Positions 3,665-64,000 of a DNA stretch of 64,000 bases are shown here, piece after piece. The notes beneath the pieces are model-generated. The model did not search any database and was not told where the DNA came from. It saw only the letters and a list, made by a program, of their open reading frames with translations. Position numbers and translations under genes: made by a program. Origin of the DNA: Macrostomum lignano (lineage: Eukaryota); assembly GCA_002269645.1 (NCBI GenBank), contig NIVC01000424.1:361501-425500 (forward strand), in the 5' to 3' direction. Within the stretch, counting starts at the first letter, position 1; each line of letters starts with the position of its first letter.

Positions 3665-3701
<37 letters not shown>

Positions 3702-3788
3702 GCCTGTCTGTCTGTCTGCCTGTCTTTCTGTATGTATGTGTGTCTGTCTGTCTGCCTGTCTGTCTGCCTGTCTGTCAGCCTGCCTGCC

Positions 3789-3835
<47 letters not shown>

Positions 3836-6006: not shown

Positions 6007-6483
6007 TGTCAACTATAAAATATATTAGAAATTAGCGACACTGACTAATTTCCTATGCTAATGCATTATGAGTCATAATGCAAATAACAAATTCAGAATA
6101 GATATAAGAGTAAGTTATGTATTCTAGATAAATATAATCATTTTTTCATTCTTTATTTTAACAATAACAGGTTCACACAGGATTCACACAGGAAGACAGT
6201 AAAAATGAGACGGCAGAGAGGACTAATCCAAGGGGGGCAGAGGGCCAATGAACGAGTCGCGTCAGAAAATATCTATAAAATGCCATTATGCATCTATCTA
6301 CTGAACTGAGTAGCTTAGACGCGATTTTGTCGAGCGGCCTTTGAGTAGCAATTTTACGATCTGCAGCAAATGAATTTAATATTAGATTTTGAGCAACCTC
6401 AGGCGCGCAACGCCTTCTGGCAACGAAAAGAAAATGCAACAACAACAGAAGGCCTTCTGTGTCAGCTTATTAATTGATAAAAA

Positions 6484-38759: not shown

Positions 38760-41239
38760 CCCGCATCGTCGTCGTGCCCAAGCAGACTCCAGGCGAGATC
38801 AGGATTACGCAGGACTTGAGAGACCTGAACAAGTCGGTCGTTAGAGAGCGGCATCCCATCCCGACATTCGAGGAGGTGACGGGAGACATGGCAGGAGCGC
38901 AGCTATTCTCAGAGCTCGACATCGCGAAGGCATTTTATCAAATCCCAGTCGCCGACGAATGCCGCCATCTTCTGACTTTTTCGACACCACGAGGCCTGCG
39001 GCGGCTGACACGGCTCTGTATGGGACTGTCTACGGCCCAGGAAATTCTCCAGGCGGTCATGTCATCCGTGCTAGCTGGACTCCCGAAAGTAAAATGGATT
39101 CACGACGACATCATCGTGTATGGGCACAGCGTGGCGGAGCACCACAGCAACCTGCAGGCATGTCTGCGACGACTGGCACAGCACGGGCTGACGCTGAATC
39201 CGTTAAAATGCAAGCTCGCCCGTACCGAGGTCACGTTTATGGGGATGCAGCTGTCCAGTGAAGGTGTCAGACCAACCCAGTCCAAGTTGGAAGCCATCCA
39301 CGCATTTGCCGAGCCAAAGACTGCCACAGAGGTGCGCTCGTTCCTAGGCCTGGTCAACTATCTGGCCTCATTCACCCCCGGTCTGGCGGATGTAGCGAGG
39401 CCACTGCGCAATCTGACTAGGAAAGGCGACCCCTGGGCATGGACCGACCTCGAGAAACGAGCTTTTGACGACGTGAAGACCCGGATTGCGACCAGCGGCA
39501 CCCTCGCCTTCTTCAACCACCGCCTAGCGACGCAACTCATCGTCGACGCCGGCCCAGCGGGCCTGGGCGCGATCCTAACGCAGACGCAAGCGGACGGCAC
39601 CAACCGGCCTGTCGCGTACGCCAGCCGGACGCTATCCGATGTTGAGCAGCGCTACTCCCAGACTGAGAAGGAGGCGCTGGCCGTCAAATACGGCTGCTTG
39701 AAATTTCAGTACTATCTGCACGGCGCTCCGACATTTACGGTGGTGACAGACCACAAGCCGCTCATCGCATTGTTCAGCAGTGGCTCAAGGCCTCCCCCGA
39801 GGATCGAAAGAATGGCGCTGCGCATTCAGCACATGAAATTTACAGTCGAATATCAGCCTGGCCCACTTAACCCAGCGGACGTGCTGAGCCAGCAGCCGCT
39901 GCCAACACGAGGAAGAAATGTCGGCGAAGAGCTCGACACCCTCTGCATCGCTGCAATCGTCCAGGCGGCCATACCGAACGCGCTGTCGCTGTCCTCAGTG
40001 CAAGAGAGTTCGCTGCAAGATGCAACAATTCAAGCCGCTATTCGATCGCTGGAGACAGGACGATGGAGCCTCGAGTCGGCGGAGATGCGATCGCTCCACG
40101 CCCTACGGAATGAGCTATCGGCAGCGGACGGCGTGCTCCTGCGGGGCCAGAGAATCGTAGTTCCAATGGCGCTTCGGCGCCTGGTTTTGGACCTGGCACA
40201 CCGCGGTCATCAGTGCCTGCGCAAGACGGTTGACCGTTTGAGCACCAAAGTCTGGTGGCCAAGGGTGCAGGAGCTCTTCGTGCGTGCCTGCCGAGCCTGT
40301 GCAGCTACGTCGCACGCGGCCGACGTGACCGCCGCGCCGCTGAAGCCGACGCCGATCCCGAAAGCTGCATGGCTAACACTAGGGGCAGACCTGCTAGGCC
40401 CCATTCAAGGCAGCATGCTGCTCGTCTGCGTTGACCACTACTCGCGCTTCCCTGAAGTCGAGATCGTCCAGACCACAACGGCCGAAGCGCTGATTCCCAA
40501 GCTGAGGAATTCGTTCGCCAGATTCGGCATCCCACAGGTACTGGTCACCGATAACGGCCCGCCATTCTCCTCGGCCCAGTTCAAAGGCTTTCTGGACAGC
40601 CACGGAATCCGGCAGCGTCTCATCACACCGCTGCATCCGCAGGCCAACGGCATCACTGAGCGCCTGAACCGCTCCATCAATAAGGTTGTACGAGCTGCCA
40701 TTGCCCAGAAGCGCGACTGGAGGGCGGCCCTTGACGAGTGGCTGCTGGCCTACCGTTGCACGCCGCAGCGAACCACCAACCGGGCACCAGCCGAGCTGCT
40801 CTTGGGTCGCGTCCCAAACGATGCCATCCCGTCAATCAGGCCGTCGAGACCGGTGGCCATCGCAGACAGGAGGCTCCGACAGCAGGACGCCAGCAGCAAG
40901 GCAAAGGGCAAGCGCTACACGGACAAGCGACGGCAGGCGAGACCGCATGGGCTCAAAGTCGGCGACACGGTGCTCCGGTGCCGACTAAATCCGCTCAAGG
41001 GCGAGGCTCCATTCGAGTGGACACCCTGGCTGGTCGAGAGTGTCAAGGGCGACTCGATGACCATTCGGCAGGGCGCCAGAGTTTGCAGGCGGCACTGCAC
41101 TGACCTGAAGCGGGTAGCACCAGATGCAGAGCCTGATTTTCCTGTTGGGGAGACCGCACCGCCGATCTTGCAAGCTGCGGGGAGCGAACCCGCGACCCCT
41201 CCAATTGCGCTGCGACCACACCCCGAGAGGCCAAGGTGA
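38663..41239 (+). CDS. pol: Pol: RT, RNase H, integrase (out of frame with gag-PR by one base near 38655)
   Basis: RT ELDIAKAFYQ, WIHDDI; RNase H VDAG, EKEALA, TDHKPL; integrase H..H..C..C, ADLLG, TDNGP, TERLNR; Gypsy domain order RT-RH-IN. Confidence 0.95.
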   Translation: MPIHLAQAVDAELQCLEDQGIIEPVEGPCPWVARIVVVPKQTPGEIRITQDLRDLNKSVVRERHPIPTFEEVTGDMAGAQLFSELDIAKAFYQIPVADECRHLLTFSTPRGLRRLTRLCMGLSTAQEILQAVMSSVLAGLPKVKWIHDDIIVYGHSVAEHHSNLQACLRRLAQHGLTLNPLKCKLARTEVTFMGMQLSSEGVRPTQSKLEAIHAFAEPKTATEVRSFLGLVNYLASFTPGLADVARPLRNLTRKGDPWAWTDLEKRAFDDVKTRIATSGTLAFFNHRLATQLIVDAGPAGLGAILTQTQADGTNRPVAYASRTLSDVEQRYSQTEKEALAVKYGCLKFQYYLHGAPTFTVVTDHKPLIALFSSGSRPPPRIERMALRIQHMKFTVEYQPGPLNPADVLSQQPLPTRGRNVGEELDTLCIAAIVQAAIPNALSLSSVQESSLQDATIQAAIRSLETGRWSLESAEMRSLHALRNELSAADGVLLRGQRIVVPMALRRLVLDLAHRGHQCLRKTVDRLSTKVWWPRVQELFVRACRACAATSHAADVTAAPLKPTPIPKAAWLTLGADLLGPIQGSMLLVCVDHYSRFPEVEIVQTTTAEALIPKLRNSFARFGIPQVLVTDNGPPFSSAQFKGFLDSHGIRQRLITPLHPQANGITERLNRSINKVVRAAIAQKRDWRAALDEWLLAYRCTPQRTTNRAPAELLLGRVPNDAIPSIRPSRPVAIADRRLRQQDASSKAKGKRYTDKRRQARPHGLKVGDTVLRCRLNPLKGEAPFEWTPWLVESVKGDSMTIRQGARVCRRHCTDLKRVAPDAEPDFPVGETAPPILQAAGSEPATPPIALRPHPERPR

Positions 41240-46407: not shown

Positions 46408-48783
46408 TCGTGTGACTTGGACTCGGATAGGACGCCATATGTCAGCTGAACGTCGGTTGTAATGTAAAAGTACATACTTTTAGACACTGGATTGCTGTGC
46501 TGGTAACCTAACTGAACCCTACGGATTTGACCGACGACAGAGAGTACTGCTCGTCCTAACGCGCAGTCCACTTCAGCCATTTCACTGCTGCTTTTTGCAG
46601 CTGTCATGCTGACGTTTTGATCGACTTAAAAAAAATACAAATTGAATCAGTTTGCAATAATTATTGGCTAAAAAATTTACCGCCTAAGCTTTAATAGAGT
46701 TGAATTTTGCACCATATGTATTTTGATTTATTGTAGGTCAAAATCGATCCGAAAATAAAAATGGATTAGCAAACCAGCTCACATCTGAGCACACCAGTTA
46801 ACAAGTGCAACAACACCCTAGGCAGTCGCTGACATCAAGGCTGTGAGGTCGCTGGCAGCAGCGGGTCCTGCTGGCCCAACAGAAGCTGGCGACAATTTAG
46901 GCCCAATAAAATAAACTGGGGAGGTCAGCTTCATGGAAATGGGCAGAGAGGGCAAGTTCAAGTGCATGTATAGCGATGAAGCTGCACGCAGATTCCCATG
47001 ATTCCCACAAAAGGCGCAGGCCAAGCAAGACTTGGGATTGGAAGATGGGGAAGCCTATCCAAGAACATGCATCACGTGACCACTGAACAGACCATAAAAC
47101 CGCCGCATAGGCAACCTGTGATGTCATCATACCAGTACAGCCGCGGTTGGCTGGGATGCGATGGGACTTTGGGGAGCAGCGCTATCATAGCGTGCAAAAA
47201 AAACAAAAAAAACAAAAAAAAATTTGGGCATCAAATTGATTAAACAAATAATTACAAAAATCTTGGATAAGCAGGAGTAAGCGTGAGGAAAAACAAGCAA
47301 AGGTTTGGGTTGAGCTATTTTTTTAGTCAAAAGATGTACCGTCACGGAAAAATAGTTCGAAGAAAATCGGTTCAGCCATTTTTGCTAAAATCGATCGCTA
47401 CCTAAGATAGATATCATAGATAGATACCTACCGACAGACCATTTTTAGTATTGAAGATTCGCTCTCACTAGCTACCACTAAATAAACATTGTTTTGTGTG
47501 CAGATTCCACGTCATTAAATATTTCCTCGTTGCTCTATGCATCTGCAGTCGCGTGATTTGACGCCAGTTTTTATGGCAGTCTGAACGAGTCTTAAGAACT
47601 TTACACGCTTTGGTGGGTCCAGGGTCATGTTAGAAGTGATCGTTACGCGCACGTGGGGTCTCATCCTAAGGTCTTAAGATAGGAAGAATTTGTTTGGCAA
47701 TATTTAACATGACATATAACATTAATATAACATAACAAAACACAACATAACACATTAACAAACGGAGGAGAAAATCGTGAATCCAAGGTGACAATTATAT
47801 GTTAAAGTTCGATAAGGCAAGGTTTTTTAGGAAACTTATTTGGGGTCAGAAGTCTCACCAAGAATGACAGAATTCAATGTGTATAGGTAACAGCGAACTA
47901 AGATACCAATAAATTTAAATATCATCTTTAATATTTAATTCACTGGGAATTAGCAATTTGATTCCATTAACTAGCTACACAAACACAATGCGCAGGAAGA
48001 CAAATTCAAATTCATGAAATTAGAAATATTATTAAGGTTTACAATAAAACAGCAAATTAGAAAAAAAACTGGGTTTGAAATAGCTAGTATCAAATAATTC
48101 TTCGTAGATTTCGACAGTTCTCAATAAAAAAATCAAGACAGAGGAAAAGGTGATGAGGGATAATATGCGCTAATGCTGGATAGCTAAGTTACAAAAATTA
48201 GCAATATTCCACCCCACTTTTGAATACTCTGGAACATTTTTAGCAACATAATCGATTGAACTAATCACAACCGGGATTTGCAATGCCAATAAAATAATTT
48301 AAATAAAATAATTATTTAGTTGCAACTTCTGGTGAATCGAACACGAACAGCATAAGCACCGCCAATAAAAGGATCAGCATTTAAAAATCCTATTTAGCAG
48401 CATTTGCACAGAAAAGTCAATCAGCCCTTGCACAAAACCGACTTCATTACCTCTATTATGAAATGCCATGCCTATAGTAGCTACGAGCTAACAAATATTT
48501 ACTATAGCGGCTGGCGTCATATGGTGGTTTAACCATTTTTTTATTAGAGGCAGGGGGGCAAGGACCACTAGAAGTTTTCTTACAATTTTACGAGAATATT
48601 CGCAATTTTACCACTTGTATTTCATTCCTAACTATAAAATGCTTCAATTCAAACTACTTGTAGTTATCTTCACTTACGGTTTTAAGCTTACTTTAAGCTA
48701 GCAACATAAACAACCAACCAAACATTACCAACAGAAACCTCCAGTGAAAAATACAGTCAGTTGGTTTGCCTTTAGCCTCAAAA

Positions 48784-49231
48784 TTACCTTCTTAACTTAA
48801 AAATGTTGGCTATTGCGTCAGAAAAGACAACACGATTTGTGCGACCAAAACTTGACAGCCGATCGAAAACCGGCCTGCTCTGAAATTGTTCGCAGATTGA
48901 TAAAACTGACCGACTTGAACTATCTCTGTCCGTGAGACAGTCTGGTCCGAGCTCGTTCACCAGCCACTCGAGTGCTGAGCTGCTCACTTTATTGCATGCA
49001 GCACAGTGCACTGCACTCTTGTTTTGCCTTCCTCTCAGCTTGAAACACTCGACTCCATTCATCTTCTCTTTGATGAACTGCATTGATTCCGCCTTCTGGA
49101 ACTGAGCCGCAATGTGGATGACTGTGTTATTGTCTGCATCTCTGTCCGTGAAACAACCTCGTCCGAGCTCGTTCACCAGCCACTTAAGTGCTGAGCTGCT
49201 CACAGCATTGAAAGCAGCACAGTGCACTGCA
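48784..49231 (-). pseudogene. Ankyrin-repeat coding exon, 3' part, interrupted by the Polinton insertion
   Basis: Two similar units: AVHCAA.N.VSSSAL.WLVNELG..C.TDRD and NNTVIHIAAQ (ankyrin-like). The frame is cut at 49232 by the AGTAGT terminus. Confidence 0.7.
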
Positions 49232-49334
49232 AGTAGTATACGTTTTTTTGACACAAAGCCGATTTCCTTATGGCGAAATACATAGTAAGTACAGGCCCAA
49301 AAAAATGGCAGAGTCTGAAATTTGCCGTGCACGC
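49232..49334. repeat. Left terminal inverted repeat of the Polinton
   Basis: AGTAGTATACGTTTTTTTGACACAAAGCCGATTTCC...GTGCACGC. Confidence 0.93.
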
Positions 49335-49561
49335 AAACTAGCTTTTACGCAATGAATTAACCAATTAGCTGAATCACTTTTACGCAAACACCTGTCTATC
49401 CACCTAAATTCTATCCGCAATGAATGCAGCTAATTACAAGCCCAACCAAAATACACAAAGCTTATTTCGCGTATAACTTAACACATTTAAATTCTTCTTT
49501 TCAAGCAGTATTGTATATTTCAACTAGATCCAAACACAATTTGACGCACAAATTAGCGAGT

Positions 49562-50125
49562 TTACAAATATTGAGGCAGCACTCGAAAAACAAAATTGCG
49601 TAATTTAGCATACAAGTATCGAAACGAACCAGTGCGAATTATATTCCGTTTAAAAACGCTTCGAATAAAACACTCTAGGTTTTCTCTGGTAGTCAACTTA
49701 TGAAAAATATAAAAAATTACCCAAAATCCACAACTTCCACTCTGTGGGTCTTGGATAGCAAAGCGACTATAACACCAATTTTTCGAATTTCCACATTCTT
49801 TTCCTAGCCATTTTGCTATTCTTGGCAATGGTACTAGACCAAGAGAATCAAAATATTCACCAAGTCGTTTGCTACCGCGACCTGCTGGATGACCATAAAC
49901 CCAAACGCATACCCAATGTTTTCCGGGCAGGTTGGAGACGTCAGTATTAACGATAAAAAAATAGTTTTTACCGTCTAAAGGTAAGCGTCTAAGTCCACCA
50001 ACAAAGTTTTGAGGAAAAACACCAAGACATACAACATTTAAAAAATGTGCGCACAATTTCGATACAACATTGCGAAGGAAGCGATCTGTTACACCACGAT
50101 CTAGGATAGAATCAATTACTTCCAT
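49562..50125 (-). CDS. Adenain-like maturation cysteine protease
   Basis: IVNTD...GKHW (His), YFDSLG (Asp), IQ....SCG (Gln/Cys); ATG overlaps the MCP stop. Confidence 0.92.
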   Translation of the reverse strand: MEVIDSILDRGVTDRFLRNVVSKLCAHFLNVVCLGVFPQNFVGGLRRLPLDGKNYFFIVNTDVSNLPGKHWVCVWVYGHPAGRGSKRLGEYFDSLGLVPLPRIAKWLGKECGNSKNWCYSRFAIQDPQSGSCGFWVIFYIFHKLTTRENLECFIRSVFKRNIIRTGSFRYLYAKLRNFVFRVLPQYL

Positions 50126-51438
50126 ACTGTGCCAGGAACAATGTCGCGAAGTTCAGTCAGTTGCAGTTGCTTGTCAAATATACCTCCAAATATGACGTTG
50201 TACACGGTACTAGTTGCAGCATTGAAGCGTAACTCTAGTTTTACATTTCCTTCCTTATACAGTTGCACTCCCCGTCCGACACCAGGTTCACTTCCAAGAC
50301 TGAATGCAAAAATTGAGTAACCATTGGCGTAATCCAGCATATTAAATCCAATATCTCGTCCCTGTAGATAGATTCCAAGCTGTTGTAGCAAAAAATTATA
50401 CTCTGTCACACAATCATCTCCAAAGTTTGTCTGCAGCGGACGCGATGGTACCGAGTCTCCATTCACAAACACACCAATGCTGCTCACATTTGCATGCTCA
50501 AAGTTGAACGGATTTGTGTCCATGCTTCCATTGAATGCCTTGTTGCTTACGATTGCCATCAATAAAAGCCGTGGTACCCCACTAGGAAACAAATTTTCAT
50601 GCGTATGGCTAGACGATCCTCGGGGTATAGTAAACGTACCAAGGCTTAGACTTCGGTGCGGATATAATGCATTGTGACTTTTAAGTCCATGAGCATGTGC
50701 ACTGATAACACTCGGCGAGGGTTGAACAAACCGCAATCGTAGTTCTGCACGCAAAAACTTGATCTCATAGTCTTTTAAAACCGCACCAGCTTCTAATGTT
50801 GACCCGCTCAGGACAAATTTACTTTTTGCCGGTATGAGCTTGATCCGTAGTGGTGTCTTTGATAGTAGATACCGAGGCTGACGAAACAAATCCAAGAATA
50901 ACGGCCCCGATACAGTGCACCGCCTATTGTTAGCAATGAGCGCCTGCCTCTTTGTTCGTCCATCGTTTTCACTTGTTGCATTCATTTTACCAGCTGTATC
51001 CTTGTAAAACCCCCACGGCAGTAAACCAGCCTTCTGAGCTGTATGTCCATATTCCAGTAATGTAAGAAGCATAGCCTTGTATGGATACATAAAACTACCA
51101 CCTTCAACTACAGTATCGCCAATAGTAAATTGAACGTCCTCAAACAATGTTCCAATAACCAAATTATTCAAACAAACAAAATTTTTCGTTGCATCTATAG
51201 GTTCACCTTCACTATCACTAACGCTGAAGCATACCGTGAGCACAGTTTCTTGTAGATCCAAATACAAATCGCCTGCAGGCACAACTTCAAATTCGATAGG
51301 TGATCCTTTTGTAATACCATGTTGCGGTTGAATGTTAGTATATCGATTATCCAAAACACTAAACTGAACAGGACTTTGATCAAATAGCGACAATTCACTT
51401 TTAAGAGCAGCAATATCAGGTCCAAGCAAATGATTCAT
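50116..51438 (-). CDS. Major capsid protein (double jelly-roll, Polinton type)
   Basis: KSELSLF...PIEFEV...YLDLQET, YPYKAML.TLL.Y, NPFNFEH, GNVKLELRF: typical Maverick MCP motifs; ~440 aa. Confidence 0.9.
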   Translation of the reverse strand: MNHLLGPDIAALKSELSLFDQSPVQFSVLDNRYTNIQPQHGITKGSPIEFEVVPAGDLYLDLQETVLTVCFSVSDSEGEPIDATKNFVCLNNLVIGTLFEDVQFTIGDTVVEGGSFMYPYKAMLLTLLEYGHTAQKAGLLPWGFYKDTAGKMNATSENDGRTKRQALIANNRRCTVSGPLFLDLFRQPRYLLSKTPLRIKLIPAKSKFVLSGSTLEAGAVLKDYEIKFLRAELRLRFVQPSPSVISAHAHGLKSHNALYPHRSLSLGTFTIPRGSSSHTHENLFPSGVPRLLLMAIVSNKAFNGSMDTNPFNFEHANVSSIGVFVNGDSVPSRPLQTNFGDDCVTEYNFLLQQLGIYLQGRDIGFNMLDYANGYSIFAFSLGSEPGVGRGVQLYKEGNVKLELRFNAATSTVYNVIFGGIFDKQLQLTELRDIVPGTVWK

Positions 51439-51439
51439 G

Positions 51440-51898
51440 CTACTTTTCAAACAGACTAAAAAGTTTCTTGCTTGCAGTAGCAGTTCGACGTTTTCCTATA
51501 CCACCGGTCTTCTTGCGTTTTCTTTTGTTCACGCGTCCCTTTCCACACTGTCTTGTTCGTCGTTTCTTTTGCCGTTTCTTCTTTCCTAAGCTTATAGCCA
51601 CTCCACTGGTTCTTTTCCTTCGCTTTGGTCTCGAAACTGCAGTTGTATTAAACATCTCTTCGCTCGATTCTGTGTCCAAGTGACGCTTCCGACCCATACC
51701 AATTTTTGCTGTCGCACTTTTCAAATACTCCAGACCACGATCCAAGAAATCTTTCTTTGCGTTGCGTAGTACAGGATACACCAATCTGTCCGCCAAATTT
51801 GACAAAAAACCGTAACCTTCGTAAACAGGAATGCCATATCCACCTCCACCTTCAGCAGATCTATTCGGACCAGAATAAAAAGCAAAAATAGGATCCAT
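51440..51898 (-). CDS. Small Lys/Arg-rich core-like protein
   Basis: GGGG.G.PVY.G.G motif, amphipathic segment, highly basic C-terminus; lies between INT and MCP as in other Mavericks. Confidence 0.65.
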   Translation of the reverse strand: MDPIFAFYSGPNRSAEGGGGYGIPVYEGYGFLSNLADRLVYPVLRNAKKDFLDRGLEYLKSATAKIGMGRKRHLDTESSEEMFNTTAVSRPKRRKRTSGVAISLGKKKRQKKRRTRQCGKGRVNKRKRKKTGGIGKRRTATASKKLFSLFEK

Positions 51899-51939
51899 TT
51901 CAACAGTCTTCTCTTCGTCATGCAATCCCAATTCATGTG

Positions 51940-53100
51940 TTACTTATACACTTTAGAAAATAGTTTAGCAGTCTTTGCGTCAAGATCATTTTCGTTTAAC
52001 CACTGACTTCTTGAGATTGGCATACCTTTCCATTTTACTAGATACAGACGACTTCCATTTTTCGCTCGATCAGTTTCAATAACTTTTTCAATTTCATTAG
52101 GTGTTTCATCTGTCTCGTTTACCAACATTAGTTCCGCTTGGTTAAACCTTCCTTTCAGCACTTCAAATCCATCTTCAGGGTCCACTAATTCGTACATTGG
52201 CGGGTCTGTCAAGTGTACACGATGAATGCGATATTTTGAATTACTCCAAGTCGTAGTGTATCCTTTTTCAAATGTTCCTCGACGTCGTGTAATTCTAACC
52301 CAATCACCAACTTTAAATTTATTCTCATTCTTTTTAGTGTACGACTTCGCAAACATTTTGTCCCACAAAATTCCTTGTAAATGCGGGTCTGTCTCTACCC
52401 GTTTTGGTGTTTCTCCACTCAAGGATCGATGAGGACTAGAGTTGAAATTATCTTCCAATTGCGGTAAAATGTCAAACCATCGAGGTAAATTTTTTGCTCG
52501 AAAGTATCGTAATAGACGTTCCTTTAACGAGCGGATAAATCGTTCAGCCATGCTTGCCTTGTAATTGCTTTGGCTAACAAAAAATCGAACTCCTTCCTGT
52601 TTCAGCATTTGACGTGTAGCTCTTCCGAGAAACTCCATACCAGCATCACCTTGTAAATAAACAGGCTTAAAACCACTTCGAAAAATCTCTAGTAATACTT
52701 GACTAACTTCTGAAGGCTTCTTTGTACGCAATGGTCTTAGTCGTACAACTCTAGTAAAACAGTCGATAAGAACAAGTATGTAACGATAACCTCGATTTTC
52801 CGTCTTGTATTGAGGTAAATCTGCCAAATCGATTTGAAACTGAAACTTTGCAACTGGTGGCACACTAATTTTTGGAGTTGGAAAGTTTCGTCGTGTTTTT
52901 CGAAATAAATGATGCTCATTTGTTGATCGCACCCAATTATCAACTTCGCGCTTTGCAACTTTGTTCGTAATCTGTGGAAACTTTTTACGTACTTCACGAA
53001 CAAGTATAGTCTTGTTACCACTAAATGAAGTAGGCCTGTTCAAGTTAAAAAAAGCATCCGTCAAAAATTCTTCAATTTCCTTACGCACTCGCTTCATCAT
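51940..53100 (-). CDS. Retroviral-like (c-)integrase with C-terminal chromodomain
   Basis: DDE triad QIDLAD, GDAGMEF, AERFIR; chromodomain EIEKVI...YLVKWKG.P.S.SQW.....L. Confidence 0.95.
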   Translation of the reverse strand: MMKRVRKEIEEFLTDAFFNLNRPTSFSGNKTILVREVRKKFPQITNKVAKREVDNWVRSTNEHHLFRKTRRNFPTPKISVPPVAKFQFQIDLADLPQYKTENRGYRYILVLIDCFTRVVRLRPLRTKKPSEVSQVLLEIFRSGFKPVYLQGDAGMEFLGRATRQMLKQEGVRFFVSQSNYKASMAERFIRSLKERLLRYFRAKNLPRWFDILPQLEDNFNSSPHRSLSGETPKRVETDPHLQGILWDKMFAKSYTKKNENKFKVGDWVRITRRRGTFEKGYTTTWSNSKYRIHRVHLTDPPMYELVDPEDGFEVLKGRFNQAELMLVNETDETPNEIEKVIETDRAKNGSRLYLVKWKGMPISRSQWLNENDLDAKTAKLFSKVYK

Positions 53101-53269
53101 CAGTTAGATTGATGCTAGTCGTTTGACAGTTGCAACAAAAGAACGAAGCCTCGATCGAATCTCCGTCAGTATCCTCGTTGTGCTCCTTTCCCAGAAACGG
53201 CACACATTCAGATTTTATGCAAAAAAACTCACAGAGACGAATCAAAAGTTTTTGGAAGATAGATGACAT
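53081..53269 (-). CDS. Small Cys-rich ORF overlapping the integrase start
   Basis: ATG-initiated 62 aa with CCNC; packed like the neighbouring viral genes. Confidence 0.45.
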   Translation of the reverse strand: MSSIFQKLLIRLCEFFCIKSECVPFLGKEHNEDTDGDSIEASFFCCNCQTTSINLTDDEASA

Positions 53270-53381
53270 GGTTTGTCTTATTAAACTATATATTTTTCAT
53301 AAACAAAAAATTAACCTTTTTAAAAAGCTTATAGTGCTCGAATCAATTTTGTTAAAACGTAATCTGTAATTTTAAAACAAC

Positions 53382-54071
53382 TTAATTCAGTGTTTGATAA
53401 TTTTCAAACAGACTAAGATCCTCCTTTGCAACAGTTTTTGGAGCAGACATTAGCTCGTTTCGTACATGACGCCCGATTTGGTTTGCTGCGATTCCACGTT
53501 TTCGAAGAAAGTCTAAAAATGTTTTTAGTCCACTAGGCGGTTGAGTCTCGTGTCGCTTAAGCGGTCTGTCTCGAACAACATATTCCATGAGATCTTGTAT
53601 CTCGGCATCAGTCAAATTAGCCAGCATTGGTTCTGCATTCTTGTCCATGTCCGAAAATAGGTTTTGAGCGAGAGCTTCGAAACGTGGTAAAAAAACTTTA
53701 GGAATTTCCCTTGATTCGCTGGCATATGAACTTCTTACAGTAGTCCCTTTGCGAACAAGTGACAGATTGTCCTCGTCTCCAGTGCGATAGACTTTGCGCA
53801 ATTTTAAAAGTTTGTCTTCCAATCTGCTTCGTTTCAATTGAGCTGTGTAATTTGGCTCCTTTTCCATTTCCTTGTCCAAGTTATCCATTTGGTCTCTCAT
53901 TTCCACCATATTTTTTGCCAGAGCATCTTGCGGTGCGTCTAAAACTTCAGTTTTTCGAGGTGTCTCAGCAGTTGGTGACGATCCTTGCTCTGCACCTTGA
54001 CATGCAGATTGATACACAGATTCAGGTACTAGATACATTCGTTGAAAACTACTACTCTCGTTAGTTCGCAT
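53382..54071 (-). CDS. Uncharacterised Polinton protein (229 aa)
   Basis: N-terminal RMYLVPE motif seen in Maverick accessory ORFs; intact ATG-stop ORF. Confidence 0.7.
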   Translation of the reverse strand: MRTNESSSFQRMYLVPESVYQSACQGAEQGSSPTAETPRKTEVLDAPQDALAKNMVEMRDQMDNLDKEMEKEPNYTAQLKRSRLEDKLLKLRKVYRTGDEDNLSLVRKGTTVRSSYASESREIPKVFLPRFEALAQNLFSDMDKNAEPMLANLTDAEIQDLMEYVVRDRPLKRHETQPPSGLKTFLDFLRKRGIAANQIGRHVRNELMSAPKTVAKEDLSLFENYQTLN

Positions 54072-54081
54072 TATATTCCTA

Positions 54082-54510
54082 CTACTTTCGTTGAATTGAT
54101 CGTATTAAATTCGCTGCTCCCGCGGCGGTACCAACTACTCCAGACGTTATCCCAAGCGCAGTGCTTATAGCAGGTAGAGCGGCAATAATTGGAGCCAAAA
54201 AAGGTAAAAATCCTCCGTGTTGGACAAGTATTTTCCTTTTTGCAGTAATTGGAGTCTTCTGTTCCAAAAGCTGGCGTATATATCTGCGATGCTTCTCAAG
54301 TCGTCTTTTGTTACAGTTACTAATTTTAATACGTCCACTAATAATATTAAACAGAAAGTCTACTAGACATCGTATCTCCGACTCTGAAAGTGTTTGTAAA
54401 AAACTTTTTCTCTGCTTTGGATGCTTTAGCCGATAAACAATTTGTAGTAAAAAAGCACACTGACACAATGAGCGAGCATTTTGTTTTCCTTTTTCTGTTA
54501 GTTCGCTCAT
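54082..54510 (-). CDS. Conserved Polinton small protein with QHGGFL amphipathic/hydrophobic tail
   Basis: EIRCL..FLFNI..G.I.IS...KRRL.KHR..IR.L...KRKILVQHGGFLPFLAPII is a recurrent Maverick ORF type. Confidence 0.8.
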   Translation of the reverse strand: MSELTEKGKQNARSLCQCAFLLQIVYRLKHPKQRKSFLQTLSESEIRCLVDFLFNIISGRIKISNCNKRRLEKHRRYIRQLLEQKTPITAKRKILVQHGGFLPFLAPIIAALPAISTALGITSGVVGTAAGAANLIRSIQRK

Positions 54511-54566
54511 TCTTACAAAACAAATTCACAAAATTTTCTATTACACAATTAATCTTTGCTTATAAA

Positions 54567-55556
54567 TTAGTCCGACCTATGTTTAAAATGCAGTACGACA
54601 ACAACGTGTGCTCCCGGATCAAAATTAAACGGTTTTCCGCGCTGGTCCGATAGTCGAATCGAAATCTCGTGAATTTGTTGTCGATTTGTTTTCAAGTAGT
54701 AGGGTGTTTGCAATGCACTGCTATCGCGTATAAGTTCTCCGTTTTTCTTTTGTTGGAGTTCCACAACTCGAAGCAACGGTACTGATGTACTTCCCACTGC
54801 TTGATACTCGATTATATCTGTGTAACAGTACATGTAAACCGTTTTACTAGGCATCGGAGAAGGTAGCACAGCATCCAAGTAGGTTTTGTTAATGCGCCAA
54901 ACACGATTTCTCAACCAATATTGGTGTACTTTGATGTACACTTCTCCTTCCGTTTTTCGAAGATAGTCTCCATGCGAAACAAGTCGTATAGCTTCACCAG
55001 GCGATAGAACACAATAAAAAACATAATAGTTCTCAGGTACTAGCGCTAGAGTATTGTCGAGACTTTTTATCAAATCCAAGTATGAACCATCCGGTGGTTG
55101 TACACTACCAGCGGCAGGTTTTGATAATTTTTCCGAGACAAGTCCAGAAAGTTTCTTCCAAGAGTCAAATTTGAAAGCGTCCATAAATGTAACTGGTAGT
55201 TCTAATCCAATAGTTTTTTCGCCTGAATTTCGTAAAAGCCAGGCAAATTTTTCATCTGTACCAGACGGTTGCCAGGAAACGTAAGCATCCAAGTCTGCCT
55301 CTGCCCAAACACGACCCCAATAGTTTTTCTTTAATCGTATTATTGAGTCAATGTCCGCAAAATATGGAACTTCAAATCGACGCTCACGATGAGCATTTGG
55401 CGTCGTAATTGCTCCATGGCACAGTAATTCAACTAGTGCAACCTCGAAGAATCCGTTCAATAAATTTATTGGTTCAGTTAGTCGCACTCGAAATTCATTA
55501 GGCGAGTTGGTTTCGTAACTGATATCGTTTGACGGCAAAAAAACGTAAAAACTCAT
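54567..55556 (-). CDS. Minor capsid protein (penton, single jelly-roll)
   Basis: FYVFLPSN...N....FRVRL..PI.L...EVALVE and Y.YTDIIEYQ.VG....PLLRVV...I.EISIRL.D..G.P..F motifs. Confidence 0.85.
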   Translation of the reverse strand: MSFYVFLPSNDISYETNSPNEFRVRLTEPINLLNGFFEVALVELLCHGAITTPNAHRERRFEVPYFADIDSIIRLKKNYWGRVWAEADLDAYVSWQPSGTDEKFAWLLRNSGEKTIGLELPVTFMDAFKFDSWKKLSGLVSEKLSKPAAGSVQPPDGSYLDLIKSLDNTLALVPENYYVFYCVLSPGEAIRLVSHGDYLRKTEGEVYIKVHQYWLRNRVWRINKTYLDAVLPSPMPSKTVYMYCYTDIIEYQAVGSTSVPLLRVVELQQKKNGELIRDSSALQTPYYLKTNRQQIHEISIRLSDQRGKPFNFDPGAHVVVVLHFKHRSD

Positions 55557-55613
55557 TTTGAAATAAAACACAAACTAATATTGACAACAGTTTATAATTT
55601 GCTTATAATAATA

Positions 55614-56303
55614 TTACACAAACTTTGCATCACATTCACGAGTATAGACAACTTGTTCATCACCAGAAAATATTCCTGTTCTCAATCGTAAAAAATCTGG
55701 TGTCACTTGCCGCAGGTCAATGAATAAATATGAAAAAGGTTTGTTATTTGTTGCGTCTTCATACACATTCACTAGAAACCTACTATTACGCGGATACATT
55801 TGTCGACCGAGATGTTCAACTGTGGTTCGATCGCGCACACTACGAGTTAGACAAATATAACTAGCTGATAAACTTCGCATGCGTGCTTCTGGATCAGACT
55901 TGTTAAAAAGACCTTGACAAAGGTACAGACAAGTCAAAGGGATATGATGCGCATGCTTTGTAAACATACTAGTAAATTCTGGCAACTTAGCAATCTCGCT
56001 TTGCAAGTCGTCAACAACAACCAAATCGTGTGGTAAAAAACGATTAATCATCTGTGGTGTGAATTCGGGTACAAAAACAATAGGGTCAAGACCGCTTTTT
56101 TGCCAGCATGTTCTAATTCGTTGTTGATCGTCTGGTTTCAAACTTGATCCATGGCACCAAACAAGACGGCACGGTTTTTTATCAAATAATTCTTTTCGTT
56201 CAGTCAACAAACGCAACGTCCATTCAGTTTTACCCGAGTTTGAAGGTCCAGCAATAATAAATGTAGAATCGTGAGCTAGTTGCATATTGTATGGCTGCTG
56301 CAT
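55614..56303 (-). CDS. FtsK/HerA (A32-like) genome-packaging ATPase
   Basis: Walker A GPSNSGKT, Walker B VVVDDL, F.K..HH and LCQGLF motifs. Confidence 0.93.
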   Translation of the reverse strand: MQQPYNMQLAHDSTFIIAGPSNSGKTEWTLRLLTERKELFDKKPCRLVWCHGSSLKPDDQQRIRTCWQKSGLDPIVFVPEFTPQMINRFLPHDLVVVDDLQSEIAKLPEFTSMFTKHAHHIPLTCLYLCQGLFNKSDPEARMRSLSASYICLTRSVRDRTTVEHLGRQMYPRNSRFLVNVYEDATNNKPFSYLFIDLRQVTPDFLRLRTGIFSGDEQVVYTRECDAKFV

Positions 56304-56305
56304 TT

Positions 56306-56749
56306 TCAAGCACCAAAGCGTTGCTTAACTTGCATAACCTTGGTAACCAACTTCGCAGCTAGTTTTTCTTTCCAACCAGTAGACGGATCGTGGGCAATCT
56401 CTCGTGCACCAGATTCTAATAGCTTATCAGCTTTTAACCTCTCTTGCACGTCAGAATTTTTATCATAGGCCACGTCGTGAAGCATGCACAAATTGTCAAG
56501 CCGATTAATTCCTCGTTGTCCTTTTGCTAGCCTAGCTTGCAGTTGCGTACCTGGACCACAAAACTGATATCCGCCGGGTAAATGTGCTTCAAATGGTAAA
56601 TGATTAATTAACCAATTTACGACACCATAACCTTGTTGCTTTTTATTAATCTTTCTAATAGATTTCTTCTTTTTACGAATGCTCTTCTTTTTCTTTTTAA
56701 AACCTCGATCTTTCGCTGGAGACATTTTTACAACATATATTTTAGGCAT
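56306..56749 (-). CDS. Parvovirus-type phospholipase A2 domain protein with Lys-rich N-terminus
   Basis: Ca-binding loop HLPGGYQFCGPG and catalytic LDNLCMLHDVAY, then R..AD..L. Confidence 0.88.
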   Translation of the reverse strand: MPKIYVVKMSPAKDRGFKKKKKSIRKKKKSIRKINKKQQGYGVVNWLINHLPFEAHLPGGYQFCGPGTQLQARLAKGQRGINRLDNLCMLHDVAYDKNSDVQERLKADKLLESGAREIAHDPSTGWKEKLAAKLVTKVMQVKQRFGA

Positions 56750-56840
56750 AAATTTTTAAAATTGCTTATAGTATTTACAAAGCTCTCGCATAGTGCACCA
56801 ATCACCAAAGAAAAAAATCAGTTTATTATTATTATTATAC

Positions 56841-57323
56841 TTATTGGCCAGTGCTGCCAAAGCCGCCAAAGCCGCGCCGCTTGGTCGGCGGCTCAATCAT
56901 CCGAATCGAATTGTCTGCTTCAGTCACATAGACTGAAGCAAGCACGGCCTGCTCCAGAACCAGTTGTGCAATACTGAGCCCGGCATAGTACTCAAAGTCT
57001 TCCGGACTGTAATTAAACAAGACTATACAGATTTCACCAGTATAGTCGGGGTCGATTACGCCACCGCCAACAAATAAGCTGTGCAGAGCCATGCTGGAAC
57101 GTCCCGCTATCCTGCCATAGGTACCAGGCGGTAAGCGAATTTTGAGTCCGGTTCGCACACTCCGGGACTCGTAGGCCGGAATGGTACCATCGACGCCAGC
57201 GCAAAGATCATACCCGATCGACCCGACAGTTTTTCGGGTCGGAATCGTTGCCGAATCGTATAGACGTTCAACTAAAAGCTTACGATCAGTTAGTTGTTGT
57301 TGCTGCTGCTGCTCGGGATTCAT
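56841..57323 (-). CDS. dut: Trimeric dUTPase
   Basis: All five motifs: GYDL, RSS, GVIDPDYTGEI, IAQL, RGFGGFGSTG; N-terminal poly-Q. Confidence 0.93.
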   Translation of the reverse strand: MNPEQQQQQQLTDRKLLVERLYDSATIPTRKTVGSIGYDLCAGVDGTIPAYESRSVRTGLKIRLPPGTYGRIAGRSSMALHSLFVGGGVIDPDYTGEICIVLFNYSPEDFEYYAGLSIAQLVLEQAVLASVYVTEADNSIRMIEPPTKRRGFGGFGSTGQ

Positions 57324-57599
57324 GTCGATTCTTGTAGCTGAAAGTTTAAAAAAAAGTTTTTTTTCTTGAAACATGAACGATAGCACTACATTTACGTCTA
57401 CTACAAACACAAGCTTAGTCTTGAGAATCTAACTATAAAAAATATACTTTTTCAAATAATTAAACACAAAAAAGTGCTAAAATTATAATTTAAACGAATG
57501 CCGGTATCATTTATTTATTGTAAATAATGATCAATGAAAAAATTAATGATGGGTTACAGTCTTCTATAGCATGCTATTACTTTGTACAACAAAAGAGAT

Positions 57600-57946
57600 C
57601 AGAGCATATTGTTAATTAATTAGCCAAGTGCCAGTGTCCAAAGGGTAGCGAATTAATTGAACTTGTCCAGGATCGCTTCGTATCGAAGAAGCTTAGTGCA
57701 AGTTTTCTTTGTTGCATCAAAAAAAACTTTCTGTTTTCGAGAACGAATGGACTGCATGCGCGAAAACACAAGTTGTCGCTTGTGTAAGACTCTTAAATAG
57801 TCTTGATGCTTTAAACTGCTCTGTGCGGCTTTAGAAGCAGTACTGCTCCAGCTTTGCGACCGATTGAGACTGGAACTTTAAACGATTGCTGCTTAACCAG
57901 ACCGGACCGGACTGGACCGGACCGGACTGGACCGGACTCCCCGCGC

Positions 57947-57978
<32 letters not shown>

Positions 57979-58716
57979 ACCACCACCACCGCCGCCACCA
58001 CCACCACCACCACCGCCGCCACCACCACCACTGCCGCCGCCCGCCCCCACACCACCGTGGGACGTATTTGTTGACAGTGTGCTTGCATGGCTTTTGCGAT
58101 AAACGCAGAGCATCAAGTCTAGCTGCTCGATTGCTCTATATTGCCAATTACTACCTCGAGATTGAAAATTGTCAATTTTTATTAACAACTGATTAATAAC
58201 GCGTGCGAACCAGTCATTGTAGGCCTCGGGAGATAACAGCATGTCACTGTTTGCAATCGTCTCATCAAATGATATTGTCGCAATGTTGGTATTAAAATAG
58301 ACCGAAATGATCTCTTCGCTGCTCGAGCCATCGTTGTCGTCTGCTGCTGTTTTCGGTCGAAATAGTGTCACTTTCAAGTGAAAGCAGACTCTTATTAATA
58401 AACTGGGTGAGCCAATTTTTTCCAATATTTTAAATATTGGTTCTCTTAAAGACGCAATCAACTCGCCAGGAAGTAACTCGCCAGAGCTGTTGCCTTGTTG
58501 TTCAAGAGTGGGAGTAAATTCGACAAAATTTACCCGACCACGATGAGCTGACTCGCGCAAAGCGATGGACCACCCATCTGGTGGGTTTTCGATCAGGTTT
58601 TGCAGCGATCCGGTCAGTAATCGTTGCGGTGAAAAACAAGCACCATGCGAGTGAGCATGCAGCTCGGCTTGATTACTGAACTTTTTTCTGCAGATTTGGC
58701 ATTGTGCACGCGGCAT
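57600..58716 (-). pseudogene. Relic of the pPolB N-terminal region (C2H2 finger ORF 58716-57811 plus decayed tail); no polymerase core
   Basis: CQIC...H...H finger; IDNFQSRGSNW...I..L.L; SFKVP.SI...AV and, in the same frame after two TAA stops, DNLCF. These are motifs of the region that precedes pPolB in Mavericks. Confidence 0.6.
57890..58055. repeat. (GCC/ACC)n triplet and ACCGG repeats encoding poly-Gly and GPVRS
   Basis: Direct. Confidence 0.93.
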
Positions 58717-58937
58717 TGTGTGCACCTAGCTCGACAACGAGCGTATCGAGCATAATATTAATAGATGATCCGGTTTGTCATTTGCGGCTGTAAGAAAAAT
58801 GATGATTTGGTTAGTTATAGGTATAGCTGACACGTTTACTATTAGAGAAAACAATTGGTAAATAAAAAAAAAGACAAAATGTTTGTAAAAGAATGCATCG
58901 CAACTGCGATTTGACAGCAATTGTTTACTTGTTAAGT

Positions 58938-59495
58938 TTAGTTATTAACAGAGATTAAAAAATCCTTGACATGGTTAAGAATATTATTCAATTCATGAGT
59001 GTTTTGAACGCCCATAATAACAAACTTTTTCGAAAAAAATATGTTACAAAAAAGCCTTGGTTTTGATGCTGATCTAACAGAAACTGCTTGTGGGAAATTT
59101 TCTGCATCGTATCCAACCAGATAATTCGAATAGTAGCCTGCATATCTTTTTAGACTAGAGAAACCGAATTTTGGCCAAAGATGACCAATAAAGCCGACAT
59201 AGGTACTGCTCTGAATTTTTACTGAATCAAAATCTACACAATTAATAGTGTCGTTGATAAATCGTAAAACTGAGACTATCTGAGAATTTGATTTACAGCC
59301 ATATATAGTTAGTTTTCCTGCTGGATAAAGTTGGATTTTAGCATTTGAATAAATTGTCTTTAGCATTGTTGGTCGGCTTAGGAATAGTTTGCAAAACCGG
59401 TTTCTGGTCTGTAGCTTCTGTTTGGTCTGCTTTAAATCAAATTTTTCAAACGGGTGCAGCTTCAGACTCGCAGTAACTATTAATAGGACAAGTCG
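58938..59495 (-). CDS. TATA-binding-protein-like protein (185-aa open frame after a splice acceptor; first in-frame ATG 59366)
   Basis: Two TBP-like half-repeats: LIVTASL...FDLK...IQLYPAGKLTIYGCKS and VKIQS...YDAENFP...KPRLFCNIFFSKKFVIMG. Confidence 0.75.
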   Translation of the reverse strand, partial: RLVLLIVTASLKLHPFEKFDLKQTKQKLQTRNRFCKLFLSRPTMLKTIYSNAKIQLYPAGKLTIYGCKSNSQIVSVLRFINDTINCVDFDSVKIQSSTYVGFIGHLWPKFGFSSLKRYAGYYSNYLVGYDAENFPQAVSVRSASKPRLFCNIFFSKKFVIMGVQNTHELNNILNHVKDFLISVNN

Positions 59496-59705: not shown

Positions 59706-60904
59706 TTACTCATCATCAGAGCTGCTGTACGAGTCGTCCGATGAAGACACGCTAGCTGTAGTAGCGTCCGCAGCAGCACGCTTTAAAAATGCTGTCTCCT
59801 TGGACGCTACCCTGGTTCCAGAGGCAGGTGTACTCACCAAGATCTTTGCTGGTGGAGCCTCCACCCAGTCTGTGCCATCTGCACCAGCTTCGGCAGAATT
59901 GTTTTGCTGTTTTGCACCGCTGCGTTTTCGAACTTGCTTTTTAGGCGGCGGTTCAATAGAGGCTGGCGCTGCATTCGATGTAGTCGACTTCTTCGATACG
60001 GTGGTGGTAGACCGACGCTTTGCAGGTGACTTGGCAGGTGTCACCTGGCTTGAATTCTGCAGGCTTTGTTCATTTGCTTCTTCTTGCTCACAGGTAGATG
60101 TTGGGGACGGACTCCTGCTTCTAATTGCTGACTTGGTCGCGGGTAGGTGTGCAAGCACTCCCTTGAACATGTCGAGGCGCTGCAACATGTTGTCGGAAGA
60201 TTCTATGAGTGTCAGAGAGCGCACAGCGAATGTAATGCGCCAGACGAGGCAGCCTTTTGGACAATACAAGCTCGTTGCTTGCACTGTCATTTGGTAGGTA
60301 CCGCTGACACCTTTGAAATCGGAAATGGACACCTCCTTCCCGTGTGGATGATCGTTGCTGATCCTGATTGTGGCACAAGGGTAAGCAGGCTTTATAGCCA
60401 GCCATTGTTGAGGCACAAACTCGAGGACGTCGTTAGCATGCTGATGAGCTGGTTTTGTTAGTCGTGCCAAGGGTCGAGCATCTTGAATCTCGTTCAACTT
60501 GACCGATAGACCTTTTTCGACTTGACTGCAAAACATTATATAAATTATGAATATAGTTTCCTAAAATTAATTGTATAAATTTAATATGGTGCTCACCGGA
60601 GAGAGTGGAAGAGTTCCTTATCGCAGCTGTCTGGATGAAATTGGACACTTACTGCGTCGCGAGAGTCGTGTCTGCAAGACGGATGATCGAGCTCTGGCCT
60701 TTCTGCGATTCCACGAAAAAGCTCCATTGGAGCCTTGGTTTGCAATATAATTGGGTACCATTTTGTACACTCGATTGATGGTTTCCACGCAATAGATCGA
60801 AACTGGCAGGACGAACCAGTCGTGGTTGTAGACTGCTCTCCAACGTAAAAAATCGGACTCGAGTCGGAGCGTACAATTGACTCCGTCTTGATGCAAGCTG
60901 CCAT
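59706..60904 (-). CDS. Spliced gene (exons 60904-60597, 60525-59706; 375 aa), putative OB-fold ssDNA-binding protein with acidic tail
   Basis: A 71-bp GTGAG...TTTTGCAG intron joins two ORFs in phase 2. PIILQT..., ELF..LRQVE, and the strand pattern TVQATSLYC...WRITFAVRSL resemble viral T7-gp2.5-like SSBs; C-terminus SSSDDE. Confidence 0.6.
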
Positions 60905-61589: not shown

Positions 61590-62335
61590 TGACACACAAA
61601 TGCTGTTTGGACTAAGCTAAATTACTGTGTTGAGACAGTTAAGCTGGACCACGGCTAAATCACTATTGATACGGTTAATTGCTACTAGACCCATGGCTAA
61701 ATCACTGTACGTTGAGACGGTTAAGCTGGACCACGACTAAATCGCTGTACGTTGAGACGGTGGTTAAGCTGGACCATGGTTATAAAACTGGACGGGTGGT
61801 TAAGCTGGACGACTACAGCTAAAATTACTGTTGAGTCAGTTATGCTAGACCACAGCAGCCAAATCACAGTTGAGGTAAAGCTGACCATAGCTAATTCTCA
61901 CTGTTGAGACGGGTGCTGCTGCTTGGCTCACAGCTAAATAACTGGACAGTTAAGCTAATCGGACTACAGCTAAATCCCTGTTGAGACAGTTGCCTGGACC
62001 ACAGCTAAAATCACTGTTGAGGCAGTTAAGTCTGGACAACAGCTAAAATTACTGTTGAGACAGTTAAGCCTTGACTATAGCTAAATCATCGTTGAGGTAG
62101 TTAAGCCTGGACTATAGCTAAATCACTGTTGATGCAGTTTTAAGCTAGACCACAGCTAAATCATACTGTGAGGCAAAAAAGCCGGACCACAGCTAAAAAC
62201 TGTTGAGGCAAAAGCTGGACCACAGCTAAATCATACTGTTGAGGCAAAAGCTGGACCACAGCTAAATCATACTGTTGAGGCAAAAGCTGGACCACAGCTA
62301 AATCATACTGTTGAGGCAAAAGCCAGACCATGGCT
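61590..62335. repeat. ~36-bp tandem array (GCTGGACCACAGCTAAATCATACTGTTGAGGCAAAA) inside the Polinton
   Basis: About 20 degenerate copies, most homogeneous at 62200-62330. Confidence 0.88.
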
Positions 62336-62587
62336 AAAGAAACGTATGAAAAAAAATTATTTGCATGGATTAATAATTTTTGTTTAATGATGACTGTACA
62401 AGATATTGACTTTATATTGAATTAAATAATTTCAATGAATGGCGAATAAAATTGAAAGAATTTTTTAGAATAATGAATTTATAGAGATTATATTATTGAT
62501 TACAGACTTGTTTGATATATACTAAAAGAGCAATTACTTGGACACATTGCTGGCAAAATTTTATGAAGAGTTAGAAAAAATGTCTTT

Positions 62588-63448
62588 TTAAGATAGGTCC
62601 CAATATTCAAATACTTGAGTTGTATTACAGGTCTTTGCTAATTCTACTTGGTAGAAGCCTGTGCTCATTTGAGAGACTTTTACAGACTTGATGTCCTTCT
62701 GTACAATAATTGGCGAGTTTAGCAGCGGTTGAACTTGGGTAGAAATAGCAATTGATGATGATGGTGTTTCAGTTGCTGTCGTTGGTTTGGTACTTGTAGG
62801 CTTACTGCAAGTTTGCTTTGTTGGGTCATTGTAGCTGGTTGGTGATGGTGGTGGTGGTGCATACTGCAGTTGGTCAGTTGGTCGTGGGTTCGATTGCTGC
62901 CTAATTGACTGAATAACATCAGTTCTTGTGTAAATGCGATCTAGCTCAGTTGTCTGTCTCTCGACATGAATCGAGGTTACTCTGGCGAGAGATGTAGAAT
63001 ATGATGCTCTTGCAGCAGAATTGGATGTGGTGGTGTCGTGGCAAATGCGTTTGCACTGATCTGGAGGTGGCCGCGTGAAGAAACCATTCTTGAATGCTAT
63101 AATAATGGATAAGATGAGGGAAATTTGGTATAGGTGCATGTATACAATGTATATAGAAACTGAACTAGCAGAGAATCAGTCTAAACAGAAACCGAACTAG
63201 CAGACAATCAATCTAGAAATTCTGAACTAGCAGAGTATTAGTCTAAACAGAAACCGAACTAGCAGAAATCAATCTAGAGACTGAACAAACAGAGGATCGG
63301 TCTAAACAGAAACCGAACTAACAATCAATCTAGAAACTAAACTATAGCGAACAGTCAATCTAAAAAAGAAAACTGAACTAGAGTAGGTGATTATCTTACC
63401 TTGTTTAACATAGCGCTCGGCCAATTCCTGCTGACGTGATCGCTTCAT
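62588..63448 (-). CDS. Probable spliced gene (exons 63448-63400, 63096-62588; 185 aa), Thr/Pro-rich, unknown function
   Basis: ATG...CAA G|GTAAGA donor and TTCCCTCATCTTATCCATTATTATAG| acceptor are both phase 1, giving MKRSRQQELAERYVKQAFKNGFFTRPPP. Confidence 0.55.
63155..63385. repeat. ~50-bp degenerate repeat (AAACAGAAACCGAACTAGCAGA...ATCAATCTAGA) within the predicted intron
   Basis: About 4 copies. Confidence 0.75.
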
Positions 63449-63903
63449 TTCACTTAAGATGTAAGTATAGTTGAACAAGTAGTATAATGTAAACTTGGTT
63501 TAAGTTATTTAATATTTTCTGTGTCAGTGTGTTCGTATATATATATATATAAAGAAGAAGCATGTTGACGCAGTTGTTGACATAGTATCTGTAAACCATC
63601 TGCTCAAGTTGGTGCAAAAATTCTATAGGCACTCAAGAATAGATCATTTACTATCTTTCTTCAAAAGGGTGATAATATTCACAAGTTTTCAATATTTCAA
63701 AAACACTTGAAATGTGTGAATAGCTTTGGAGTAAATTTGTCTTGAATGGAATCCTTTGAAGTGTGTTTGTGTCACCATTGCTAGAATCGGTTACTTGTAT
63801 TTTGGACAGGTGGATATGCAATTCGTCTGAATAATCACGTTGCGTAAAAGATATTTAGCGTGCACTTGGAATTTCAGACTGCGTGCACATGGAATTTCAG
63901 ACT

Positions 63904-64000
63904 GCGTGCACATGAAATTTCGGACTCTGCCATTTTTTTGGGCCTGTACTTACTATGTATTTCGCCATAAGGAAATCGGCTTTGTGTCAAAAAAACGTAT
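63904..64000. repeat. Right terminal inverted repeat of the Polinton (last 6 nt outside window)
   Basis: Reverse complement of 49238-49334; differs only in the innermost ~20 nt. Confidence 0.93.

Follow-up and report, generated by a model that had tools for sequence, protein, structure and literature searches.

Canonical Polintons (Mavericks) have AGTAGT ends, an rve integrase, protease, ATPase and capsid-type genes, and a polymerase, pPolB, of the domain order TP-vOTU-(EndoVII)-EXO-PALM. In the accessible text of bioRxiv 10.1101/2024.03.18.585575, domain D1 of pPolB is a PRD1-like terminal protein (TP) of LF/PAD fold with a Ser or Tyr in the loop from helix 2 to strand 4; vOTU cleavage between TP and vOTU probably releases it. 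Adenoviruses, PRD1 and a Stylophora polinton have a free TP gene that ends between TP and vOTU, as does a metagenome locus analyzed here (L069), and in all of them the same genome also encodes the polymerase, as a gene of its own. Defective Maverick copies are the rule in vertebrates (PMC8097293, available sections). Polintons that lost polB and were apparently amplified beside polB-bearing near-relatives have been reported in the butterfly Pieris mannii and in a second insect group, the loss accompanying LINE or Gypsy cargo; the authors left the mobilisation of the Pieris mannii elements open, and the TP is not mentioned in the section on polB-less polintons, as far as its accessible text extends (bioRxiv 10.1101/2025.02.07.637071). 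Tlr1 elements and PLVs, sometimes termed non-autonomous polintons, likewise have no active pPolB and carry a helicase fused to a derived polymerase (PMC5499653, available sections), and the accessible parts of PMC10748475 and PMC3014272 report no non-autonomous polinton families. Our literature search, in which subscription journals were mostly outside coverage, found neither a TP-only polinton nor a report of a Macrostomum Maverick.

Short non-autonomous Polintons are present in Repbase, and a deletion derivative that keeps its ends and outnumbers the intact partner is familiar from Ds, the P-element KP and defective interfering viruses. The element studied here lies in a stretch of 64,000 nucleotides of Macrostomum lignano DNA (the window, to which all positions refer); it differs from those derivatives in keeping its integrase and virion genes, and would outsource replication only. 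It has in common with the canonical Polinton the AGTAGT ends, the integrase, protease, ATPase and capsid-type genes, and an N-terminal TP of LF/PAD-like fold with a Ser between helix 2 and strand 4, but the vOTU core, exonuclease and palm are deleted, and the TP appears to have been freed by a deletion accident and not by vOTU cleavage. Whereas the insect losses came with cargo, this one looks like a plain internal deletion that kept the TP and a C-terminal stub; unlike adenoviruses, PRD1, the Stylophora polinton and L069, the element has no separate polymerase gene; and unlike Tlr1 elements and PLVs, it showed no helicase family among 18 ORFs scanned with Pfam. Mobile polintons without polB are already known from the butterfly; what is new here is that a free TP has been retained.

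TIRs with a short terminal repeat motif, an rve integrase and a morphogenetic module place the element among the Polintons/Mavericks. It spans 49232 to the end of the window, ~14.8 kb, its right tip lying outside the window, and all its genes are on the minus strand:

49226..49231, plus strand: candidate 6-bp target-site duplication inside an ankyrin-repeat ORF (Pfam Ank); the right counterpart lies beyond the window
49232..49335, plus strand: left TIR, starting AGTAGT; in run X17 three contigs diverge exactly before 49232
49562..50125, minus strand: Ulp1/adenain-like protease with His, Asp and Cys motifs; ASFV S273R match at E 0.008; 3 matches in related loci
50116..51438, minus strand: what we take, from the gene layout, to be the major capsid protein; 30-36% over ~420 aa against ORFs of pPolB-bearing loci
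51940..53100, minus strand: rve integrase with chromo domain (Pfam PF00665, above cut-off, and PF00385); 22 matches in related loci
54082..54510, minus strand: adenovirus protein X-like core protein (Pfam PF05829)
54567..55556, minus strand: probable minor capsid protein, a name we assume; 4 ORFs of related loci match its last ~90 aa
55614..56303, minus strand: packaging ATPase, Walker A present; 31-37% over ~210 aa
56306..56749, minus strand: PLA2-like protein (Pfam PF08398)
56841..57374, minus strand: dUTPase (Pfam PF00692)
58938..59366, minus strand: TBP-like protein (Pfam PF00352); 2 matches in related loci (L010, L061); adjoins pPolB
59706..60536, minus strand: possible viral SSB, a lead only; Atlas links it to a DUF2738 cluster (score 0.90; 10% of members) and a Pox_I3 cluster (0.87)
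63903..64000, minus strand: right TIR, cut by the window end

Homology of the capsid, ATPase, protease and integrase genes was drawn from 81 related loci bearing pPolB-neighbour ORFs. The integrase ORF is full length and, like the ORFs for protease, capsid, ATPase and PLA2, it is open and aligns with its relatives along most of its length, in agreement with a preliminary description of this DNA that had called the genes other than the polymerase intact; its claim of near-identical TIRs also held, with 94 of 98 positions identical between the arms 49238-49335 and 63903-64000. The major capsid ORF had no match in Pfam, PHROG or solved-structure searches, the ATPase none in the solved-structure search, and the SSB candidate none in Pfam or PHROG; the predicted structure of the latter has a pLDDT of 32, and the SSB earlier credited to the element is, on this and the Atlas score, just a lead. 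Exact matches in the protein collection were found for 0 of 8 window ORFs, scans of viral contigs with the capsid ORF, P0005 and P0008 gave no match, and neither did a metagenome scan with P0005. Elsewhere within the element, 36-bp and 62-bp tandem arrays occupy 61600-63450, and a Ser/Thr/Pro-rich ORF of 183 aa (62588-63139), without match in Pfam, PHROG or Atlas, may have an upstream exon near 63400-63450, as judged by eye. The window also holds an LTR retrotransposon at 37194-41239 (plus strand) with gag-protease and RT-RNaseH-integrase ORFs, probably Ty3/Gypsy from its domain order.

On the left, the element disrupts an ankyrin-repeat ORF (48784-49332, minus strand). Contig depth in the bin 48940-49259 is 930-34,700, so the ankyrin family at the insertion is very high-copy. 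Contigs without the element continue through the ankyrin region in X17 and X2, and these may be paralogues. Between 49450 and 50030, 6 substitutions and an 8-nt indel separate the window from all four runs described below, so the left end of the window is not the common form and may reflect either an uncommon variant or an error in the consensus.

The preliminary description had seen no polymerase or exonuclease core between the TIRs, and this was confirmed with a profile built from 23 pPolBs and run on 2,422 stop-to-stop segments in six frames of the whole window. Matches below E 1 amounted to three pieces (57814-58725, 57656-57877 and 57619-57792), N- and C-terminal only, and none of the three covers the exonuclease or the palm. 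The complete pPolB with exonuclease and palm motifs that characterizes autonomous Polintons/Mavericks is absent; judged on sequence, the element is a deletion derivative and not an autonomous member. Its pPolB region comprises:

57616..57817, minus strand: pPolB C-terminal remnant, 66 codons in two frames, corresponding to P0034 residues ~1358-1421
57719..57726, no strand assigned: A-run at which the C-terminal remnant changes frame (tblastn); the window form makes up 64-86% of contig depth in 4/4 runs
57811..58716, minus strand: open ORF of 301 aa with a C2H2 finger, TP, Gly-rich linker and the first ~25 vOTU residues, then a stop
57817..57818, minus strand: deletion junction; the P0009 and P0034 matches end at 57817
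57896..58057, minus strand: Gly-rich and SGPVR repeat linker, its SGPVR end common to the sister P0009
58096..58584, minus strand: TP domain (aa 45-207), predicted priming Ser189 at 58152-58150

The ORF at 58716-57811 had been likened to a pPolB N-terminus, and indeed 58719-57817 corresponds to residues 1-298 of P0034, a pPolB of 1,422 aa, at 38% identity. The missing portion amounts to ~1,060 codons (vOTU core, EndoVII-like domain, exonuclease and palm) and extends from five residues before the vOTU Cys (P0034 C303) to just past the K-G-V motif. Homology had been said to run out beyond this point; instead, 57817-57616 is the pPolB C-terminus, matching P0034 residues ~1358-1390 in one frame and 1386-1421 in another. 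With an X at the break it shares 58% identity with the final 66 residues of P0004, and it is matched by 22 of 23 pPolB homologues (P0009 being the exception), which were retrieved with a C-terminal query and are thus selected for having a C-terminus. The two TAA stops result from the out-of-frame joining of the TP ORF to the C-terminus, not from nonsense decay. The A-run frameshift severs a motif at least 90% conserved in 12 pPolBs, and would presumably by itself disable a polymerase. Instead of the gradual decay pictured earlier, the middle of pPolB was lost in one event, with the TP intact and both gene ends kept.

The preliminary description had also continued the homology past the stops to DNLCF (57777-57763), a candidate vOTU remnant that we rejected: the vOTU Cys sits 5 residues after H-R-A in P0034 and P0009 and the DNLCF Cys 17 codons after, and the same DNA codes for the pPolB C-terminus in another frame. 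DNLCF is the sole D..CF match among 29,534 translated positions of the element. Two database candidates were likewise set aside, P0003 (a Chlorobium repeat protein) as a spurious match, and P0004 (a TP piece with a polymerase tail), considered as an independent deletion in another family, as a probable spliced gene model, its accession being adjacent to that of P0032 and its contig equal in length.

The TP domain is no decayed N-terminus: its reading frame is open and its predicted structure is good, with a pLDDT of 84 over residues 1-217. The predicted model has the traits of a PRD1-like TP, a 4-stranded sheet with two helices in an LF/PAD-like fold, and places G188-S189 in the loop between helix 163-186 and strand 192-207; a Ser occupies the predicted priming position in 15 of 15 aligned sequences. 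Compared with 48,161 chains, the model had Y-family polymerases as all of its top 9 matches (Z 5.0-7.0, rmsd 3.0-4.9, 96-115 aligned), where a Z under 8 by itself can reflect a common arrangement; the scores are modest, but Y-family polymerases are the family that bioRxiv 10.1101/2024.03.18.585575 points to. Of the four BFVD matches at E <=0.001, three carry names: a C2H2 protein from an adintovirus, PolB of a MELD virus and a polymerase labelled as densoviral. By every test available the TP is intact.

A protein search with the TP at similar length gave no match and one at longer length gave P0002 only, neither of which demonstrates absence. Among the related loci, 38 of 81 carry TP-bearing ORFs, 39 in number: in 27 the TP is joined to both vOTU and core, in 5 to just one of these, and 7 stand alone. 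Of the 7, five belong to fragmented genes; in L069 the TP is cleanly split off, and L005 holds an extra copy. In L069, from a metagenome, the free TP ORF (2098-2784, 228 aa) has a Tyr at the priming position and is accompanied by a vOTU-polymerase ORF (3178-6336, 1,052 aa); in L005 the additional stand-alone TP-like ORF (4962-5438) lies downstream of a long pPolB ORF. P0005 and P0030 are TP-only records of 199 aa. Free TP genes are viable in the wider group.

The stretch is present in 17 of the 20 sequencing runs listed, and contigs of four of them, X15, X17, X2 and X5, each from a different study, were aligned on 48300-57890. At the A-run at 57719 the window form has a depth share of 0.77, 0.86, 0.73 and 0.64 in X15, X17, X2 and X5, respectively, the remainder being indel variants. 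In both X15 and X17 a single contig reproduces 56549-57779 exactly, with depths of 109.5 and 58.5, respectively, near those of the rest of the element. X5 is fixed for SNP alleles (e.g. at 51643, 53923 and 55667) that are minor in X2, and the majority form at 57719 is the same; X2 has five minor variants at 0.11-0.19. Median element depth is 4.3, 9.5, 5.7 and 2.5 times that of the flank bin in the four runs, and 4.0-6.5 times that of a diverged TIR-sharing contig found in 4/4 runs, with the reservation that contig depth is not copy number and that contigs omit rare variants. The longest records aligned measure 17.6-21.9 kb. One contig per run in X15, X2 and X5 matches 50545-53730 in short patches over the capsid and integrase genes, and probably belongs to a second, diverged Maverick family.

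More than one insertion site is indicated. The three X17 contigs that diverge at 49232 agree with one another at 0.56, the expectation for three unrelated sequences, though these flanks may belong to sister elements. In the gene model P0002 the exons within the element equal the window sequence but the downstream exons are absent from the window, which suggests a second insertion site. The pol-broken form is thereby indicated as the majority form of the family, at several sites. Among the contigs listed, none bridges 57817/57818 and the identical ones end at 57779, so that sharing of the large deletion among copies is something we infer from the linked frameshift.

Candidate helpers are also at hand. 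The nearest named pPolB proteins are Macrostomum lignano records, P0009 and P0034. P0009 is identical in 41 of 46 aa (89%) up to 57817 and continues with vOTU, exonuclease-region and palm motifs; its record ends in non-homologous residues after R-P-K, and it may itself be broken. P0034 is a complete pPolB, more distant, with 38% identity in the TP. One X15 contig departs at 57817 into K-G-V-type polymerase sequence (by eye), which implies that a longer relative exists in the X15 sample, and the A-run of a minority of contigs deviates from that of the window. P0009, P0034 and the TIR-sharing diverged contig are separate records, none joining TIR and pPolB on one molecule.

We lean slightly towards a non-autonomous Maverick family that carries one pPolB deletion, spread after the loss and is helped in trans. 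The earlier proposal that the lineage lost its polymerase, still multiplied and has an autonomous helper draws fair support from the pol-broken majority form in four studies, the several sites and the polymerase-bearing relatives; this support does not extend to sharing of the exact junction. That gap gives room to the main competing account, which we consider rather unlikely: the depth would come from polyploidy or duplication of the ankyrin array, or the large deletion would be private to one copy, its sisters sharing the frameshift only. The host, a neopolyploid, combines three subgenomes and reaches up to hexaploidy (PMC10733133, available text), the insertion lies in the very high-copy ankyrin family, 96% of vertebrate Maverick loci are degraded (PMC8097293, available sections), and 57817/57818 is unspanned among the contigs listed. 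Against this, flank depth is 2.5-9.5x below element depth, and contigs of 4,261 and 4,508 nt are unbranched at full depth, where a subgenome divergence of 1.39-2.41% (PMC10733133, available text) would give ~59-103 differences over such contigs; the point is weakened in that the assembler drops variants, but unbranched contigs and low flank depth together argue against polyploidy as the cause. The three unrelated flanks and the other flank of P0002 speak for more sites, and among the loose ends listed none falls at 57817 in X17, X2 or X5.

Multiplication by the integrase alone seems improbable. Here the open, full-length rve integrase would move the element by cut-and-paste, copies arising via host replication and gap repair, and TP, dUTPase and SSB candidate would be leftovers; Ginger transposons, with a related integrase, use cut-and-paste (PMC2836005, available text), and the closest sister polymerase record, P0009, may be broken. 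We found no direct evidence for this route, nor direct support for the related suggestion of host replication with the element's own SSB and dUTPase; the SSB assignment is weak, and in Pieris mannii, as here, polB-less mobile polintons are accompanied by near-relatives that bear polB (bioRxiv 10.1101/2025.02.07.637071, accessible text). Loss of the polymerase core by assembly collapse, which had been named as a refuting case, is very improbable. The junction has a GC-rich repeat 80 bp away, the left end of the window is at odds with all four runs, and the listed contigs leave 57817/57818 unspanned; the junction itself, on the other hand, is in unique sequence outside that repeat, and contigs of two other studies reproduce 56549-57779 letter for letter, down to the frameshift, so that the common form is pol-broken whether or not there is an artefact.

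Under the favoured reading of a deletion family helped in trans, the single internal deletion, which removed vOTU through palm and left the open TP ORF and an out-of-frame, frameshifted C-terminal stub, would have founded the family. Copies would be excised and re-inserted by the integrase that the element itself encodes, and the pPolB of a rarer sister with similar TIRs would act in trans, carrying out the protein-primed synthesis that starts at the AGTAGT ends as well as second-strand synthesis. The retained TP may prime for the borrowed polymerase, or may be a passenger. The more specific version, a satellite Maverick that keeps a working free-standing TP and borrows only the catalytic polymerase from the rarer sister, we regard as unlikely on present evidence. 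With the break immediately ahead of the vOTU active site, the ORF resembles the TP thought to be cut off by vOTU; since TP is consumed once per genome end and the polymerase is catalytic, TP supply alone could let the deleted form outnumber its helper ~2-6:1; and a TP-supplying satellite is consistent with the viability of free TP genes in the wider group.

Should the junction prove private to one copy, this would be an ordinary defective Maverick. In the literature reviewed we found no demonstration of Maverick replication and movement. The locus offers a cleanly mapped deletion in what is probably a laboratory flatworm and a candidate helper of distinguishable sequence, so that observation alone could test two points, the action of pPolB in trans and the origin of the TP that caps the DNA ends. 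A TP satellite, if true, would be a natural replay of the split between TP and polymerase that gave rise to the adenovirus arrangement, here with TP and polymerase carried by separate genomes.
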